The notes beneath the pieces are model-generated. The model was not told where the DNA came from. It was given only the letters and a program-made list of their open reading frames with translations, and ran no database searches. The position numbers and the translations under genes were made by a program. From a virus (taxonomy: Duplodnaviria; Caudoviricetes), in the IMG/VR virus record IMGVR_UViG_3300006120_000085, positions 1-25,437 of that record: 25,437 nt of DNA, one strand, 5' to 3'. Shown here piece after piece: positions 9,337 to 25,437 of this stretch (its first letter is position 1; each line of letters begins with the position of its first letter).

Positions 9337-9344
9337 TATTTATT
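9337..9344 (-). promoter_or_regulatory. T4-type late promoter variant AATAAATA
   Basis: One mismatch to TATAAATA, intergenic, 33 nt upstream of the 1046-aa gene start. Confidence 0.6.
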
Positions 9345-12332: not shown

Positions 12333-13070
12333 TTAGTTGCTTTGAACTTTTACAAAAGTTGCGTTAGGACCTGCACTTGAGTTTAATACATAACGATACT
12401 TGGTAGGGTTGTAACCACTTGTGTAGTAAGTCACTGTACCATTTGTACTGTCCATTTGACCATCACTTGTGAAGTCATAGACAAACTTGTTAGTGATACG
12501 ACTTGCATATGTGCTAGTTGTAACACCAGTTACGCTGCTTTGTGCACCAACGTTACCGTTTGTAGCAATAGTTACGTTACTTGTACTGTTGATTGCAGTA
12601 ACACGTGCAACACCTGCGTTACCAGCGAAACCGATGATGTAATCACCGACACGTGGAGTAGCATAAATGCCAGTTGGAGTAGAACCCCAAGTGACGTAAG
12701 TGCTTGTTGCGCCACCAGCTACGTTGGCTGCTGCTACAGAAGCTGTACCAGTGTTCAATGTAATCAAGATGTTCATTTGACCAGCTGTCAAGTTTGGACT
12801 GTTTACCAATGTGCAATCACCTGTACGTGTACCGTCAGTGACGCGGAACTTGTGAGCACCTTTTTGTGCAACAATACTACCAGTAGTAGATGAACCACCA
12901 GTCAAGTAGACCTGAGGTTGAATCTGTAGACCAGTATCGCTTGTCAATCCGCCTACGCCGCCAACGTGATAACCGTTGACCAATGTTGGGCTTACAAAAC
13001 GATCACCTTCTGGTTGTGGATATGTGACGCTAGTTTGTGTTGTCTGATTTGCTATTTTTAGTTTTGCCAT
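12333..13070 (-). CDS. Probable head accessory/decoration or other virion protein (245 aa)
   Basis: Monocistronic unit with a perfect TATAAATA, AAGGAG RBS and its own terminator, just downstream of gp23. T/G/S-rich. Function is inferred from position only. Confidence 0.6.
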   Translation of the reverse strand: MAKLKIANQTTQTSVTYPQPEGDRFVSPTLVNGYHVGGVGGLTSDTGLQIQPQVYLTGGSSTTGSIVAQKGAHKFRVTDGTRTGDCTLVNSPNLTAGQMNILITLNTGTASVAAANVAGGATSTYVTWGSTPTGIYATPRVGDYIIGFAGNAGVARVTAINSTSNVTIATNGNVGAQSSVTGVTTSTYASRITNKFVYDFTSDGQMDSTNGTVTYYTSGYNPTKYRYVLNSSAGPNATFVKVQSN

Positions 13071-13134
13071 TTTGTTCTCCTTGTTACGGTGTTCTAGACC
13101 GCCACTTGGCTAAGTGGAACTCAGTTGAGTAGTG

Positions 13135-13142
13135 TATTTATA
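13135..13142 (-). promoter_or_regulatory. T4 late promoter TATAAATA
   Basis: Exact gp55-dependent consensus, directly after a terminator and upstream of the 245-aa gene. Confidence 0.85.
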
Positions 13143-13153
13143 GTTTGGTCAAT

Positions 13154-13174
13154 AAAAAACCCGCCGAAGCGGGC
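13154..13174 (-). terminator. Rho-independent terminator
   Basis: GCCCGC-TTCG-GCGGGT-TTTTT. Confidence 0.9.
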
Positions 13175-13178
13175 TTGT

Positions 13179-13232
13179 TTATTCTTCTTCGCCGTCGTCT
13201 TCGTCTGGGCCGTAGATAGCTAGAGTGTTCAT
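13179..13232 (-). CDS. 17-aa acidic micropeptide MNTLAIYGPDEDDGEEE
   Basis: ATG...TAA with an AAGGA RBS 7 nt upstream, TCTAAATA upstream and a terminator 4 nt after the stop. Confidence 0.6.
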   Translation of the reverse strand: MNTLAIYGPDEDDGEEE

Positions 13233-13265
13233 TTTAGTTCCTTGTTAAGAGCTTACGCTCACCTG

Positions 13266-13273
13266 TATTTAGA
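13266..13273 (-). promoter_or_regulatory. Late promoter variant TCTAAATA
   Basis: Directly after the gp23 terminator. The same 8-mer occurs at 17533-17540. Confidence 0.6.
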
Positions 13274-13284
13274 GTATAGCCAAC

Positions 13285-13308
13285 AAAAAAGAGCCTTGCG
13301 GCTCTTTC
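13285..13308 (-). terminator. Rho-independent terminator of the gp23 transcript
   Basis: AAAGAGCC-GCAA-GGCTCTTTTTT. A second hairpin, AGCCCAGT-TTCG-ACTGGGTT, precedes it at 13323-13342. Confidence 0.9.
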
Positions 13309-13355
13309 TTGACTCCCTCTGTAACCCAGTCGAAACTGGGCTCCCGAACAGAAGA

Positions 13356-19601: not shown

Positions 19602-21878
19602 TTACATACTTACATTAAGAAGTTTCTGCATTAGGTCTTTGTTGTCTTTAGCGTGGACAGCCATTTCTGAGCTTATATCTAGATGCTTGGCCATCATATC
19701 TTGTAGACCATTGAATGCGTTTGCAATCATATCGCCCTTATCAGACTGTGCTACTACTGTTGCACCAGTCTGTGCTCCCAATACTGTAATCAATTGATCA
19801 ATTTTTTGCATCAATTCTTCGCTACCACCACCTGCTCCTGACGCAGGAGTTCCGCCAACAGCTTTAACCAATTCGGTATATCCAGTGCTATTAGTGTCTA
19901 GCATACCTCCAGTTGTTGGAATGACAAGTTCAGTACCGTGTAGTTTCTCTAAGAATCCCGATGGGTCACCTGAAGCCCATCCACCGTCAGCCATACCAGA
20001 CCAACCCTTAAATCCACCGTAGATTGCGCCACCAATACCACCAAGCGCAGCACCAATGGCTGTACCAACCAATGGAACAACGCTGCCAACAATAGCACCT
20101 GCACCTGCGCCGACAGCGCCATAACCCAATGCTTGCTCACCAGCGCCAATGGCTTTTTCTTTTGTGGTCATATTAGCCATATGCACACCCTTCATCACAG
20201 TGTCAGATGCTTCTTTAAATGTATCTGCCAATAACTTAGCATACGTGTCAAGATGACTGCCAGTAAACTTCTCCATCGCAGCCGCTGCTTTTTGAGATTG
20301 TGCTGTGATGTTGGCAAAACTTTGTTCTGTACTACCAGTTTTGCCAGCAAGATTAGCCTGTGCATCTGCGCTCTTACTGCTGCTGTCTACCATCTCACCT
20401 AAATTTTGAGTACTCAACGATAGCATAGAGTTTTGAGTTTGAGAGAATGCGTCAATAGCTTCACCCGTTGCACCCATACCTTTTGCAAAGTCAGTAGCAG
20501 CCCCAACAGATCCTTTGTTTGCTGCGGCGGCTTCTTTTGAAGCGCTAGCCATTGTACCAATAGCACCTTTAAAGTCCATAGTACCAGACTTGACACCTTT
20601 GGCCATGTCTTCAATCATCTTACGAGCAGGACCCGAAGTATATCCAACAACGTTAGTAGTACCAGTTTTCATAATCTGATACAACGCTTGTCGTGCTTTG
20701 TCAGCGTCTGGGCCCATTTTCTCTAGCGCAGCAAAGCTAGCCTGATACGCAGTCTTTTGTTTTGCATCCAAATCACTCATCAAACTTGCTCGTTGTGTTT
20801 CAGCCGCAGCTTTGTCCATGAGTTTTTTAGCATCTTGACCAGTAATGTCACTGATAACTTTTAAATTCTTAGCATATTCACGAGTACCTTGGGCAAGCTC
20901 TGTGGGAGAAAGATTCTTTAAATCTACCCCAGTACGTTTTAGCTGAGACATATAATCAGCCTGAATAGCCATTTGGTCTTCATAGCTGTAACCCAAAGCC
21001 AACATTTCGTTACTCAGACTTGCACCGCTTTTACCAATAGTTTTGGTAGCTGCCGCAAACCCCTTTGCCAGCATTGCAGTACCCTCACCCTGTGAAAATC
21101 CTGCTTGTCTCAACGATTCACTTGATGTTGATGATGCCTTAGATAAGGTGGTAAGACTTAGACCAGCGTCATTGGCAAGATTACGCATCTCTGCCATACC
21201 ACCAGCAAAACTAGCACCCTGTTTGGTATAATCTTTCAGAGCCTGTGTAGACTTCTGAAATTCTTTGGCCATAACTTCGTTTGTGGCTTTTAGGATAGCA
21301 GCCGCAGCGTCACTGATACCAGTGACCAGACTGGCTAGCCCACCGACAAATGCGCCTGCAACAGGACCGAATGCATTAGCAAGTCCAGCAGCAGCATTGG
21401 CTACACCGTGAACTGCTGTGTTACCTGCGTCAATCCCAGCATTTAATACAGCGGCACCAGCAGCAATAGGATTGTTGGCAATGTCATCGTATGATGTTAA
21501 GAATGCAGTAGCTACACTGACAGCACTTTTTGCAATACTACCAAACGCACCAAATATCTCTTTGCCTGCGGCACCCATACCAGTTTTGGTCTTGTCCCAC
21601 ATCTCAGTGCGTTCTTTTTCACGCTTTTTCTTATCCTCAGCGGCCTTTCTCTCAGACGCAGTGAGTCCTTCTAAAGACTTTTCCCACTCTTTTGCAGCTT
21701 TTTGTGCTTCTGCTTCTTGCTTCTTGAGTTCAGCAGAACGTGCCTTTTCTTCTTTTCTCTTAGTGCCTTCGCTTTTCTGCATTGCTGCTAAGATTGCCAA
21801 GAGCGTGGCTTCACTGGCCGCATTTTCTGCTTCTACTGTGCCCACTCCGGGAATGTTGACCTTTACTGAACTTGCCAT
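19602..21878 (-). CDS. Tape-measure-like protein (758 aa)
   Basis: Ala-rich helical protein with a charged N-terminal coil, Gly/Ala hydrophobic stretches (GAGAGAIVGSVVPLVGTAIGAALGGIGGAIYG) and a C-terminal A.GG...G...G....LHG.E.V.P motif typical of tape measure proteins. Confidence 0.75.
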   Translation of the reverse strand: MASSVKVNIPGVGTVEAENAASEATLLAILAAMQKSEGTKRKEEKARSAELKKQEAEAQKAAKEWEKSLEGLTASERKAAEDKKKREKERTEMWDKTKTGMGAAGKEIFGAFGSIAKSAVSVATAFLTSYDDIANNPIAAGAAVLNAGIDAGNTAVHGVANAAAGLANAFGPVAGAFVGGLASLVTGISDAAAAILKATNEVMAKEFQKSTQALKDYTKQGASFAGGMAEMRNLANDAGLSLTTLSKASSTSSESLRQAGFSQGEGTAMLAKGFAAATKTIGKSGASLSNEMLALGYSYEDQMAIQADYMSQLKRTGVDLKNLSPTELAQGTREYAKNLKVISDITGQDAKKLMDKAAAETQRASLMSDLDAKQKTAYQASFAALEKMGPDADKARQALYQIMKTGTTNVVGYTSGPARKMIEDMAKGVKSGTMDFKGAIGTMASASKEAAAANKGSVGAATDFAKGMGATGEAIDAFSQTQNSMLSLSTQNLGEMVDSSSKSADAQANLAGKTGSTEQSFANITAQSQKAAAAMEKFTGSHLDTYAKLLADTFKEASDTVMKGVHMANMTTKEKAIGAGEQALGYGAVGAGAGAIVGSVVPLVGTAIGAALGGIGGAIYGGFKGWSGMADGGWASGDPSGFLEKLHGTELVIPTTGGMLDTNSTGYTELVKAVGGTPASGAGGGSEELMQKIDQLITVLGAQTGATVVAQSDKGDMIANAFNGLQDMMAKHLDISSEMAVHAKDNKDLMQKLLNVSM

Positions 21879-21888
21879 ATTGTGTCGC

Positions 21889-21896
21889 TATAAATA
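21889..21896 (+). promoter_or_regulatory. T4 late promoter TATAAATA (drives the plus-strand gene pair)
   Basis: Exact consensus, 35 nt upstream of ATG 21932. Confidence 0.8.
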
Positions 21897-21911
21897 TTGT
21901 ATTACTACATC

Positions 21912-21919
21912 TATTTATT
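21912..21919 (-). promoter_or_regulatory. Late promoter variant AATAAATA (drives the tape-measure gene)
   Basis: One mismatch to consensus, 33 nt upstream of ATG 21878. Confidence 0.6.
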
Positions 21920-21931
21920 GGAGTTCGAACC

Positions 21932-22777
21932 ATGGTTAACCAAGCTAATCCATTAGCCAAGCATTTCCGCCAACCCGCACTGTATCTTAGTCTACCCAGC
22001 AGAGGAGTGTTTTACCCTGAGGGAACAGTGGAACTATCTGCCACTGGGACTATACCCGTTTACCCAATGACAGTCAAAGATGAGTTGGCCTTGAAGACAC
22101 CAGATGCTTTATTGAACGGTCAAGCAGTTATTGATGTTATTCGCAGTTGCTGCCCTGGAATCAAGGACCCTTGGGAGATTCCTGCTGTGGATCTTGACCC
22201 TATATTCATTGCCATCAGATTGGCAAGTTATGGGAAAGTCATGGATTTCAGCGCTACTTGTACGCACTGCAAGACAGAAAGCGATTACTCAATAGACTTA
22301 AACATGGTTCTAGACAGTGTTGGTAAAGCAGATTACAACAGACCGTTTACGTTTGATAATCTAGTGTTCAAGTTCAAACCACAAAAGTACAGAAACATCA
22401 ACAAGATGGGTATGATTACATTTGAACAAGACAAGCTAATACAAAACGTTGTCAAGAATGAGACCCTGAGCGAAGAACAAAAGATGCTAGAATTCAAAAA
22501 GGGATTTGAAAAGATACGACAGTTGAATATCGATACTGTAGTAGACAGCATTGCCAGTGTTACCACAGAAGAAGGTGTAGTTGTCACAGACCCTGCAATG
22601 ATTGCTGAGTTCTTGGATAGTTGTAGTCGTCAGATATATGAAAGTATCAAATCATCTGTACAAGAACTAACAGATACTTTTAAGATCCAACCCCTACAAC
22701 TTAAATGCGATAATGAAGAATGCCAAAAACAATTTAGCACTGAGCTGACATTCGACCATAGCAATTTTTTCGGTTAA
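21932..22777 (+). CDS. T4 gp26/gp51-like baseplate hub assembly / tail chaperone protein (281 aa)
   Basis: LPS.G..Y......PMT.KDE..L, D...I.IAIR..S.G......C..C and a C-terminal C....C.......FF, matching the T4-like baseplate hub family pattern. True start is ATG 21932 (GGAG RBS, downstream of TATAAATA), not 21872. Confidence 0.75.
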   Translation: MVNQANPLAKHFRQPALYLSLPSRGVFYPEGTVELSATGTIPVYPMTVKDELALKTPDALLNGQAVIDVIRSCCPGIKDPWEIPAVDLDPIFIAIRLASYGKVMDFSATCTHCKTESDYSIDLNMVLDSVGKADYNRPFTFDNLVFKFKPQKYRNINKMGMITFEQDKLIQNVVKNETLSEEQKMLEFKKGFEKIRQLNIDTVVDSIASVTTEEGVVVTDPAMIAEFLDSCSRQIYESIKSSVQELTDTFKIQPLQLKCDNEECQKQFSTELTFDHSNFFG

Positions 22778-22782
22778 GGCTT

Positions 22783-23001
22783 TTGCGGATGGATGAAGCT
22801 GAGATTATCAGTTTCATTGAAGAACTAGAATCATCGGCAAAAGCCCTTAAACAAGAAACTCTATCTTTGTGCTGGTATATGCGTGGTGGTGTGACCTATG
22901 ACGAGGCAATGATGCTAAGTTTAGAAGAAAGAAACATCATCGGGGATATAGTTAAGAGCAATATGGAAGCTACTAAGAAGTCAGGACTTCCATTCTTCTA
23001 A
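22783..23001 (+). CDS. Small tail-assembly ORF; possibly the -1 frameshift extension of the upstream gene
   Basis: WYMRGGVTYDEAMMLSLEERNII. The frame is -1 relative to the upstream gene and open back through the slippery T TTT TTC at 22765-22771. Its own RBS is weak. Confidence 0.7.
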   Translation: MRMDEAEIISFIEELESSAKALKQETLSLCWYMRGGVTYDEAMMLSLEERNIIGDIVKSNMEATKKSGLPFF

Positions 23002-23090
23002 GATGTGCTACGCACATCCATTGATTCGCTTGCGCTCATCAATATTATTTTTAATTTATTGAAGGAATATAATCAAGGGGAGCGAAGCGA
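23002..23090. other. Hairpin cassette flanking an AT-rich core (origin-like, or bidirectional termination region)
   Basis: Minus strand GATGTGC-GTA-GCACATC (23002-23018) and ATTGAT-GA-GC-GCAA-GC-GA-ATCAAT (23020-23043), AT-rich 23041-23073, plus strand GA-GC-GAA-GC-GA (23080-23090). Confidence 0.45.
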
Positions 23091-23094
23091 CATT

Positions 23095-23469
23095 ACTGTT
23101 CATCTAGATTAATCGTCACACTTTGCCCGGTTACCCGGGACAAAAGGAAAGAGTTGCTTTCATCTGAGTAGCACATCACCTAGCGTTAGAGCAATTACAG
23201 AGGCGGTTGACCGGTACCTCGAGCTCCGTCTTATCAACGGCGATTCATATAATATACGCTAACATACTATATGAACGTGTAGCATCGCTGCTACGTCTTT
23301 TTGCCTATATTACATCCTATTCAAACAACCAAATCGCAGGTCTTACAAGCGATCTTCATCCAACTGGGTAGTGGTTGAGCACTCTTTACAGCAAAGAGAT
23401 TTCCGTCCGAGTGATCCTAGATCCTCTTATCGTGGGCACACGGAGTTAGCCTGTGCGAGCCGTACTGTA
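23095..23469 (-). ncRNA. Candidate large structured non-coding RNA, family not recognised
   Basis: ORF-free, GC-richer than the adjacent ORF, at least 9 helices. GNRA loops (GCGA at 23279-23294, GTAA at 23122-23144) and G-U pairs work on the minus strand. Boundaries are approximate. Confidence 0.6.
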
Positions 23470-24150
23470 TTACAATTTTTTTAAATCGGGGATTATGTTA
23501 GGATGCTGTTTAGAGAGCCAATAGTTTATGAGGTCGTATCTGATTAATTTGTATTTTAAGTTTAAGTGTTCTGTAATTCGCTGATAAGTTTGTTCAAATT
23601 TGTCTTGATTAATAATGTCAGATAGAGTTAGATTTAATACACTGGGATGTTCTATGTGATTATACGAGTACGCTTTGTTTGTTACAACAAAATCAGTCAA
23701 TTGATTTTTATTTTTTAAATTTGATAACCAATTTACTATATCGTTTTCGTAAGAGTTTGCCGGAGTGATTCTTATGATTTTTGCCTGAGAGAAATTTTCT
23801 AAAATTTTAGTGACTTCAATTATGCCATGATTGTGATTTGAAAGTATGATTTGATCGATTTTGCTGTAGTTGCTATTGTATTCGTTGGATAAAGTTTTGT
23901 TTATGTTCTCTACTACTAGTTCTAAACGTTTGTCGTTGTTAAGTTTTTTACTATTTGAATCCCGAAATATGACTTGTCCATTATCTGCTATACCCAAGAA
24001 TCTTGCTGCGGGTTTAGCATAATGTAATGAAATCATAGAAGCTATCAAATCTCCTGCTGCGCCAGCAGTGAAAACAACCCATATACAGGGATCGTCTTTG
24101 GTAAAATCTACAAAATCTACAAATTTCTCTACTTCAGGATTATAATCCAT
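23470..24150 (-). CDS. Hypothetical protein (226 aa), possibly sulfotransferase-like P-loop fold
   Basis: N-terminal beta-strand and Gly loop WVVFTAGAAGDLIASMI, central KIIRI strand and C-terminal VLNLTLSDII...F...Y.RI.EHLNL resembling the sulfotransferase 'l.i.yedl...l..i..fLgl' pattern. AT-rich; overlaps the upstream gene by 11 nt. Confidence 0.6.
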   Translation of the reverse strand: MDYNPEVEKFVDFVDFTKDDPCIWVVFTAGAAGDLIASMISLHYAKPAARFLGIADNGQVIFRDSNSKKLNNDKRLELVVENINKTLSNEYNSNYSKIDQIILSNHNHGIIEVTKILENFSQAKIIRITPANSYENDIVNWLSNLKNKNQLTDFVVTNKAYSYNHIEHPSVLNLTLSDIINQDKFEQTYQRITEHLNLKYKLIRYDLINYWLSKQHPNIIPDLKKL

Positions 24151-24577
24151 TGAGTTTGTTTAAAATGTGTGAGCCATGAACACGGACTGAGATTTGTCCG
24201 TTATAATAATCTGTTGATTCTAATACTCTGTGTGTAAATTGTTCTCGGGCTTCAATGTAGCTACATTCTGCCTTTGATTTACAAATATAAAGTATTTCTC
24301 TGGTAAAGTTTTCGGTGCCGTGAGTTTGAACGTCTTTGTTTAGTTGATCGTTTGAGCCATAATAGGTTTGCCAATCAGAGTCGATTTTGCTTCGAATCTT
24401 TTGCTTTTTCTTTTTGCCGTTCTTGAGTTTTACTGTTTTATAAGTGGTTTTTGCGAATTTCGCTAGTTTTTTGCCTATGTACTTTTTGCCAGATAGATTA
24501 TTTGTGATGAGATAGACGAAACCCACGCAGTCATCGGGAAGAGTTTCCACTGGTTTTCCTTGAAATATCCATGTCAT
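24140..24577 (-). CDS. Stand-alone GIY-YIG family nuclease (about 145 aa)
   Basis: GFVYLITN..SGKKYIGKK (GIY-YIG), W..Y.GS, F.REIL, conserved Glu helix (YIEAREQ) and YYN. Start at ATG 24577 or TTG 24580. Confidence 0.85.
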   Translation of the reverse strand: MTWIFQGKPVETLPDDCVGFVYLITNNLSGKKYIGKKLAKFAKTTYKTVKLKNGKKKKQKIRSKIDSDWQTYYGSNDQLNKDVQTHGTENFTREILYICKSKAECSYIEAREQFTHRVLESTDYYNGQISVRVHGSHILNKLNGL

Positions 24578-24617
24578 CAACTACTTAGTTTTCAATGTGC
24601 CATGATAAAAATATTAG

Positions 24618-25437
24618 TTAAACTATGTCTACGTCTGTATTGTACGTAGTATAGCCGCTTTCCTTAACAACTTTTAGCGTGTTATTTACCCGCCCAGCTA
24701 GTTCGTCTTTGTGACTGACTAACCAAATACTTTTGCGATTGTCTCTGCTCATCTTTTTCAGAATAGCCAAAGCATTTTCTACTCCAGAACTATCCATACC
24801 CGAATCAACCAACTCGTCAATAAACAGCAAGTTGATGGGCTGATACAGACTTTCCCAAACATCTCGGAAGGCCCAGCTCAGTGACAGGATCAATCTGTTG
24901 CGCTCACCACGACTCAAGTTGTCAAAGTCTAGATCACGTCCTAGTTCTGTAATACTTACAGTTAAGTCGTTGTTGAATTTTACAGTATGCGGCAAGCCAA
25001 TGCGATCTAAGTATTGTCCTAATCGAGCATTTAGATAGCTCAAGTTCTGATCAATGATACGCTTACGAATAAAACTATCTTTGTTTGTCAGTAGTTTCAA
25101 CAAGAATTCCTGGTGATTTTTAAGATCATCCAAAGCATTCATTGTGTCATAGGTAATTTCTTCCAGAGCCTGTTCTTGCATTTCTCGGATCTGTTCAACA
25201 TAGGGATCAGATTCATTTTGTTTTGCAGTAAGCTGAGCCAACAGCGCACCCATACTACTACGATGTTCAAACGCATCGCTTTCGTTGTCGTAGAAGACTT
25301 TGGGTACAGTGCCTAATTCGCCCAATGCAGCTAGTGCATCCTGACGTTCCATTAACTGTGTGTTGGTTGCTAGTGCTTGCAGGGCTGTTTCCTGTAGTGC
25401 TCGACGTTTTTCTTCCAGCAACTGTTCTTGTTTGTCA
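24618..25437 (-). CDS. gp46: Recombination endonuclease ATPase subunit (T4 gp46 / Rad50-SbcC-like), 3' part; 5' end outside the window
   Basis: Coiled coil followed by the ABC signature LSRGERNRL, Walker B/D-loop LFIDELVDSGMD and H-loop VSHK. The frame stays open from 25421 to the edge. Confidence 0.93.
   Translation of the reverse strand, partial: DKQEQLLEEKRRALQETALQALATNTQLMERQDALAALGELGTVPKVFYDNESDAFEHRSSMGALLAQLTAKQNESDPYVEQIREMQEQALEEITYDTMNALDDLKNHQEFLLKLLTNKDSFIRKRIIDQNLSYLNARLGQYLDRIGLPHTVKFNNDLTVSITELGRDLDFDNLSRGERNRLILSLSWAFRDVWESLYQPINLLFIDELVDSGMDSSGVENALAILKKMSRDNRKSIWLVSHKDELAGRVNNTLKVVKESGYTTYNTDVDIV

Follow-up and report, generated by a model that had tools for sequence, protein, structure and literature searches.

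Which RNA fills the long gap near one end of this phage DNA, and what does it do for the phage? The window, by which we mean the whole stretch of 25,437 nt analysed here, is a virus record of 25 kb that carries T4-like genes for portal, protease, capsid, baseplate hub and gp46. The preliminary description had pointed to a long ORF-free interval, and 23002-23469 (468 nt) is indeed the longest intergenic gap of the window, the next longest being 285 nt; a 54-aa ORF inside it is in frame and open in only 1 of 45 aligned homologues. The structured RNA sits in this gap between a 72-aa gene on the plus strand and a 226-aa gene on the minus strand. The surrounding genes are as follows.

21872..23001, plus strand: baseplate hub gene (PF12322) and 72-aa gene, which converge on the RNA and serve as synteny markers
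23470..24150, minus strand: 226-aa cargo gene, inserted between nuclease and RNA, of no Pfam or PHROG family
24140..24580, minus strand: stand-alone SegE-like GIY-YIG nuclease gene (PF19835) with a product of 146 aa, the usual but exchangeable upstream neighbour
24618..25436, minus strand: gp46/SbcC-like gene (phrog_77), truncated by the window end

The best cultured relatives of the baseplate hub protein come from Phosso, Atu_ph07, PA5oct and Rak2-like jumbo phages, with 29-37% identity. For the 226-aa cargo protein a sulfotransferase-like fold is predicted (TM about 0.6), to be taken as a lead only; viral look-alikes of this protein exist and belong to no family. ARAGORN found neither tmRNA nor tRNA in the window, and a promoter scan of it gave 8 sites against 6.6 expected. 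The (A/T)TAAATA sites at 9343, 6114, 13141, 17852, 19598 and 21918 (minus strand) and at 21890 (plus strand), mostly just 5′ of structural genes, are probably the late promoters of the window. A small unit after the capsid gene (13071-13355, minus strand) holds a hairpin with a terminator, a TAAATA site, a strong ribosome site, a 17-aa acidic ORF (13179-13232) and a second terminator. At about 20 other loci and in L031 a recurring plus-strand cassette of three genes, with products of about 166, 143 and 110 aa, lies downstream of the 72-aa gene and before the RNA; the last product is DUF6614.

The RNA had been described as unrecognised and possibly a new class. This was wrong on both counts: Rfam RF01718 (Polynucleobacter-1) matches 23323-23461 on the minus strand with 101.8 bits against a gathering cut-off of 37, over positions 1-141 of its 141-position model, and a published alignment of about 280 nt, including a central pseudoknot (PMC2864571), refutes the novelty as well. 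The statement that it matches none of GOLLD, ROOL, HEARO, RNase P, tmRNA or group I/II introns was borne out by Rfam and ARAGORN, and Rfam gave no ribozyme match for the RNA. The Polynucleobacter-1 motif was catalogued by Weinberg et al. in 2010, with no function stated in those passages of PMC2864571 that treat it; the table there assigns it to Burkholderiales from fresh water or estuary and scores it 'cis-reg: y', whereas here it is an element of jumbo phages. The longer rows of the alignment (PMC2864571, supplement file 5) reach about 280 nt and stop at about position 23180 of the window. The central helices and the loop pseudoknot drawn in this full alignment are all found in the window RNA. 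However, the alignment ends before the repeat-hairpin-repeat and the tail, and it shows one pseudoknot as against five supported here. The window interval is a genuine member of a known orphan RNA family, of which the 3′ module (the last ~85 nt) is unpublished; our literature searches found no paper on this module, on the paralogues described below or on the replication origin of Rak2-like jumbo phages.

How widely is the RNA distributed? We gathered 80 viral loci via the 72-aa protein and 120 via the core pattern (about 1100 stretches estimated); the RNA is present in 118 of the 120 viral core-pattern loci. The 152 near-full copies were reduced to 125 by removal of near-duplicates, namely 64 that have the Rfam 5′ domain (type A) and 61 in which a different 5′ domain takes its place (type B). 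Type C, found in five loci (L035, L038, L058, L068, L069), has a different body and the same CTC/TCT with an ACATGAA repeat. Rfam gave no match to type C in the four loci scanned and none above the cut-off in 11 loci with type B, C or other divergent copies, and blastn of the three types against cultured phages found nothing real. A pattern scan of bacterial genomes located the RNA in 2 of 120 loci, one of which (L256) also has the phage 72-aa gene. No common promoter was seen upstream of the RNA in types A and B.

Single-sequence folding of the 375 nt is no better than that of shuffles (z -0.25 for the minus strand and -0.84 for the plus strand), so the evidence for the fold is comparative. 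The covariation alignment has 45 rows, all of type A: the window RNA plus 44 of the 63 others. In this alignment 91.4% of cells are paired as against 35-41% in slid controls, which are lenient because the structure was partly derived from the same rows; one helix, drawn partly out of register, is 54.5% paired. Two-sided changes occur at 44 of 73 pairs, which none of 500 shuffles reached, and G-U cells exceed A-C cells (252 vs 33), which fixes the strand as minus. The large structured minus-strand RNA that had been claimed is thus supported by covariation. The helices listed earlier are all in the sequence, but three details are not conserved as drawn: the two outer pairs of the CCGTT/GACGG stem hold in only 27/45 and 29/45 rows, and its 5′ arm makes a pseudoknot; of the two inner GG/CC pairs in the first hairpin, one is kept in 30/45; and one pair of the inner CGG/CCG holds in 38/45. 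That description did not mention pseudoknots, the matching of the direct repeat or a DNA-type tail. The body of the RNA has the following parts.

23099..23468, minus strand: whole structured RNA, about 370 nt, Polynucleobacter-1 family, type A, with ends inferred from conservation
23323..23461, minus strand: 5′ domain matched by RF01718
within 23388..23468, minus strand: pseudoknot of the 5′ end (23465-23468) with a hairpin loop (23388-23391), two-sided change in 3 of 4 pairs
within 23388..23468, minus strand: small pseudoknot of 23459-23460 with 23449-23450, two-sided change in 1 of 2 pairs
23436-23456, minus strand: first hairpin, two-sided change in 4 of 5 pairs
23304..23340, minus strand: pseudoknot of loop 23338-23340 with 23304-23306, supported by covariation
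23181..23294, minus strand: central domain, with covariation in the 45 rows, also drawn in the 2010 alignment
23279-23294, minus strand: GNRA hairpin of the central domain
23246-23273, minus strand: long stem of the central domain, whose loop 23257-23261 pairs with 23181-23185
23223-23226/23189-23192 and 23217-23220/23200-23203, minus strand: central-domain helices
23206..23238, minus strand: core pseudoknot of 23234-23238 with 23206-23210, present in Rak2-group elements too

Comparison of the homologues supports five pseudoknots. That between 23338-23340 and 23304-23306 can form at least three Watson-Crick pairs in all 51 parsed RNAs (of 64), while shuffles give a mean of 39 and a maximum of 46. 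Of 125 freshwater RNAs tried, 123 could be parsed, and 120 of these have all five pairs of the core pseudoknot; in the Rak2 group 22 copies were tried and 20 parsed, of which 17 have all five.

If the body of the RNA belongs to a known family, then we can ask: What is encoded in its last ~85 nt? They fall beyond the 2010 alignment, and in them a 7-nt direct repeat flanks a hairpin. The module and the tail that follows it are arranged as listed.

23159..23165, minus strand: direct repeat copy 1, AGATGAA, following an invariant CTC
23122..23144, minus strand: hairpin between the repeat copies, 94.7% paired, two-sided change in only 1 of 5 pairs
23099..23105, minus strand: direct repeat copy 2, AGATGAA, following an invariant TCT
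23080..23090, plus (template) strand: GA-GC-GAA-GC-GA mini-hairpin, 1 match vs 0.01 expected
23021..23042, minus (RNA-sense) strand: tail hairpin with a GA-GC-GCAA-GC-GA core, the conserved tail motif
23002..23018, strand not applicable: small hairpin just after the stop of the 72-aa gene

By mutual information, three column pairs covary by identity, and all of them belong to the repeat. All 64 type-A RNAs have two identical copies of it, with eight different 7-mers among them, and on a tree built without the repeat columns the 7-mer changes 27 times, every time in both copies; shuffles gave a mean of 11 and a maximum of 21. The first repeat position agrees in 10 of 10 independent pairs (p 0.002). 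Identity in type B, scored by column, is 58/61; two of the three misses are misalignments and one is real. Among the aligned RNA columns, which the partner search covered, the variable repeat columns have no Watson-Crick partner, the next-best score being 0.11-0.29 vs 0.84-1.07. Both copies are preceded by a similar GTGAC, and the flanking CTC and TCT remain different in all 45 aligned rows. If these positions paired with the complementary DNA strand, identity of this kind, with no partner inside the RNA, would be the expected trace, and copy 2, in view of the role we ascribe to it, is likely the DNA site of hybrid formation. The RNA contains a segment that is repeated at a downstream DNA site and matched to it in cis, as would be expected of an R-loop primer origin.

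The tail has another character. Downstream of the RNA the pattern GA-GC-G(N1-3)A-GC-GA occurs on the RNA strand at 87 of 124 loci and on the opposite strand at 18 of 124; about 109 of its 120 matches in 985 kb of these loci fall in tails, and the window has one on each strand. The four-base loops are non-GNRA in 33 of 68 tail cases, while all 34 parsed examples (of 64) of a body hairpin are GNRA, a bias with a Fisher p of 5e-8 on rows that are not independent. Since the tail loops break the RNA GNRA rule and the body loops do not, we suggest that the tail folds as DNA, and hairpin 23021..23042 likely acts as single-stranded DNA. The pattern, fixed beforehand on phage loci, occurs once in ColE1 (1332-1342), downstream of two G6 runs, in what we take to be the primosome assembly region; a literature search found no paper for a primosome-site consensus. 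A single tail-like motif of relaxed form in phiX174 was not counted; 14 of 200 shuffles contain one as well.

It is instructive to follow the element into cultured phages. GAP32, Ecwhy_1, PA5oct and Phosso have gaps of 0.8-1.5 kb at the same slot, and Atu_ph07 has no comparable gap there. The gene immediately downstream of the syntenic gap in Phosso (L326, 5337-5723), on the same strand, encodes RNase HI. Matches to the GAP32 element were located at 285 places in 72 phage records, and many of these phages grow on E. coli. GAP32 and XaC1 have five copies each and Ecwhy_1 four, and within each genome all copies share a strand; K64-1 yielded two. The copies are evenly spaced in GAP32 (p 0.0014), XaC1 (p 0.021) and Ecwhy_1 (p 0.031), but not in PA5oct (p 0.37). 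The Rak2-group copies share the core pseudoknot, the repeat-hairpin-repeat end and mostly an extended -10 promoter, and their repeat copy 1 has a one-base bulge relative to copy 2. In the 20 of 22 copies that were parsed, the repeats match within the element at 173 of 180 positions vs 143 when shuffled, and some repeat variants are private to single paralogues (GAP32 at 99 kb, XaC1 at 117 kb, Ecwhy_1 at 250 kb). Together these two observations point to pairing in cis. One repeat position is mismatched in 7 of the 20 copies, and the last repeat base is common to all parsed paralogues of a genome (G in 5/5 for GAP32, A in 5/5 for XaC1).

Sequence profiles gave no genome-wide cross-detection between the freshwater elements and those of the Rak2 group or PA5oct, so the case for their kinship is made by synteny, by layout and by the one pseudoknot they share; a small-set profile search gave weak matches in 2 of 10 Rak2-group sequences. 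A core motif, chosen post hoc, finds four of the five copies in GAP32 as well as the one copy in each of the freshwater genomes G001 and G002, and nothing else in four genomes. No further copies were found in G001 and G002, which are near-complete and have one detected copy each. ARAGORN places a tmRNA in both of these freshwater jumbo phages (G001 287900-288233, G002 110821-111310), besides 27-28 tRNAs.

Three co-oriented copies in PA5oct (W05; 12900-13143, 75668-77178 and 246155-246817) have a strongly conserved 5′ block in common. A paralogue of the syntenic element overlaps ncRNA004, an ORF-less RNA of 619 nt (246116-246734) whose share of the phage reads falls from 0.08% early to 0.02% late (PMC7318152). 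A TTGACA promoter precedes this RNA, and at its listed end stands a CATAAG, behind the last hairpin, that was picked by eye, as was the PA5oct repeat. ncRNA004 is a transcript; it resembles the window RNA in being ORF-less and as a paralogue of the element at the same genomic slot. However, the two have no profile-level similarity, and ncRNA004 is listed in PMC7318152 without a structure or a function; that list of four ncRNAs does not include the syntenic PA5oct copy itself.

What could such an RNA do? Building on the directly observed fold, strand, matched repeat and tail motif, and by analogy with ColE1 RNA II, we tentatively propose that it serves as a pre-primer for replication and would form an R-loop with the DNA that encodes it. 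This reading heads our ranking, with somewhat less than an even chance of being right. The RNA would be transcribed as the end of the gp46-nuclease operon or, in some relatives, from its own promoter. Its folded body would present repeat copy 1, and during passage of the polymerase this copy may pair with the template DNA strand at copy 2, one base bulging out, so that a lasting RNA-DNA hybrid is left. The RNA 3′ end near copy 2 could then prime the leading strand, and the displaced strand could fold GC-GNNA-GC hairpins through which a helicase or primase would be recruited. We count for the primer the repeat identity, the in-cis variants, the tail loops, the ColE1 motif, the even spacing and the early, scarce transcript of PA5oct.

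The R-loop precedents in ColE1 and T4 are drawn from two reviews, PMC5043065 and PMC4412123. ColE1 needs an rG stretch that pairs with a dC stretch of the template (PMC4412123). RNA II, too, is a long structured RNA in which a short run, G6, occurs twice, upstream at 928-933 and close to the RNA end at 1175-1180 (NC_001371), and GA-GC-GTA-GC-GA lies downstream on the sense strand. However, these G runs lie ~245 nt apart, whereas the variable AU-rich 7-mers of the window lie 60 apart; ColE1 is a plasmid, not a phage, and neither RNA II nor RNA I has sequence or Rfam similarity to the window RNA, the claim being that RNA II and the window RNA may work alike. T4 origins use R-loops, and oriF and oriG resemble the present case as several promoter-linked sites of a T4-like phage with an RNA-DNA hybrid as primer (PMC4412123). 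In contrast, they consist of a promoter and a DNA unwinding element, and a conserved folded RNA is not described in the passages of PMC4412123 on these origins.

Several observations count against the primer. The skew at four-fold sites in four genomes gave no consistent replication signal at the element, and whole-genome GC skew showed no switch there, although a one-way origin need not give one. The repeat has only 7-9 nt and is AU-rich, unlike the G runs of ColE1. The single detected copies of G001 and G002 also speak against it, as do the profile searches, which do not link the freshwater elements with the cultured ones, and the co-orientation of the elements, which follows the majority strand (73-85% of coding DNA). 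The mismatched position and the last base shared genome-wide in the Rak2 group would fit a protein factor too. RNase HI, present in 2 of 5 genomes and over the cut-off in one, gives the primer no support.

Foremost among the alternatives, and in our view unlikely, is a cis-acting transcription element, either a put-like processive antiterminator or a pause or anchor element, by which the host polymerase would be kept running along long operons and in which the repeat would pair within the transcription bubble. It would agree with copies on the majority strand, with the extended -10 promoters ahead of the Rak2-group copies, with the head operon lying downstream on the same strand in the window, and with the 'cis-reg' score of Weinberg et al. 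(PMC2864571). However, the next genes at the syntenic site are on the opposite strand, and DNA-type tail hairpins on both strands are left unexplained. Known put RNAs, moreover, are small and are not known to need a direct repeat.

Next in rank, and also unlikely, comes an R-loop or anchor at the element's own locus that does not prime, and serves a start of recombination-dependent replication, DNA entry, or packaging and segregation. The same in-cis repeat evidence supports it, even spacing fits an anchor as well, and the adjoining slot always holds recombination genes, gp46 together with a GIY-YIG, PD-(D/E)XK, EndoVII or RusA-like nuclease. Most Rak2-group paralogues are nevertheless located away from the gp46 locus, and packaging fits poorly with the early, scarce expression in PA5oct (PMC7318152).

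More doubtful is the view that one phage protein binds the repeats as tandem sites, in DNA (like iterons) or in RNA, and that the adjoining RNA has a function of its own. The uniform last base per genome and the similar GTGAC before both copies are what it would predict, but private variants occur in both copies of single paralogues, and 27 exact joint changes, A/G swaps included, are hard to ascribe to protein specificity.

Could the RNA be a guide or scaffold of the adjoining GIY-YIG nuclease? We consider this very improbable. Of 80 loci found via an RNA pattern, 52 have the nuclease gene ending no more than 150 nt before the RNA start, and 12 have it further upstream with an inserted gene, the window with its 226-aa gene being such a case. 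But a PD-(D/E)XK nuclease takes its place in 4 loci and neither is present in 2 (8 were too short and 2 had no RNA); one such locus has its own TTGACA/TATAAT promoter for the RNA. Cultured phages have EndoVII, a RusA-like or another resolvase at the slot, and in four cultured phages no gap of comparable size follows the GIY-YIG gene. As the GIY-YIG gene is replaced or absent at some loci, the nuclease is not an obligate partner. HEARO/omegaRNA and group I introns with GIY-YIG genes are likewise large RNAs beside a nuclease gene, but Rfam finds no match to them here, and the nuclease of the window RNA is exchangeable or absent. Depending on the phage, the slot after gp46 is occupied by GIY-YIG, PD-(D/E)XK, EndoVII or RusA-like genes (L005, L009, L325, L326, L328, L329). 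Given this variety of nucleases and resolvases, the SegE-like protein, which carries the PHROG label 'NAD synthetase', may be a junction resolvase.

Least probable of all is a trans-acting ribozyme or scaffold in which slippage or gene conversion over the hairpin maintains the likeness of the repeats: in size and in its five pseudoknots the RNA resembles catalytic RNAs, and no mismatched intermediates were seen in type A, but homogenisation would erase the CTC and TCT difference, and no Rfam ribozyme matches.

Returning to the primer, a wider proposal is possible, which we put forward with still more reserve. Polynucleobacter-1 may be the 5′ part of an ancient pseudoknotted RNA family serving as the origins of Rak2/PA5oct-like jumbo phages, each member reading its own DNA by a short bulged guide of changeable sequence, with enterobacterial members spacing four to five of them evenly round a 350-kb genome. 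The matched repeat makes the function of this orphan RNA family genetically testable. If the primer model is true, the origins of a large phage group would be named, and an RNA-defined, multi-origin mode of phage replication would be added.
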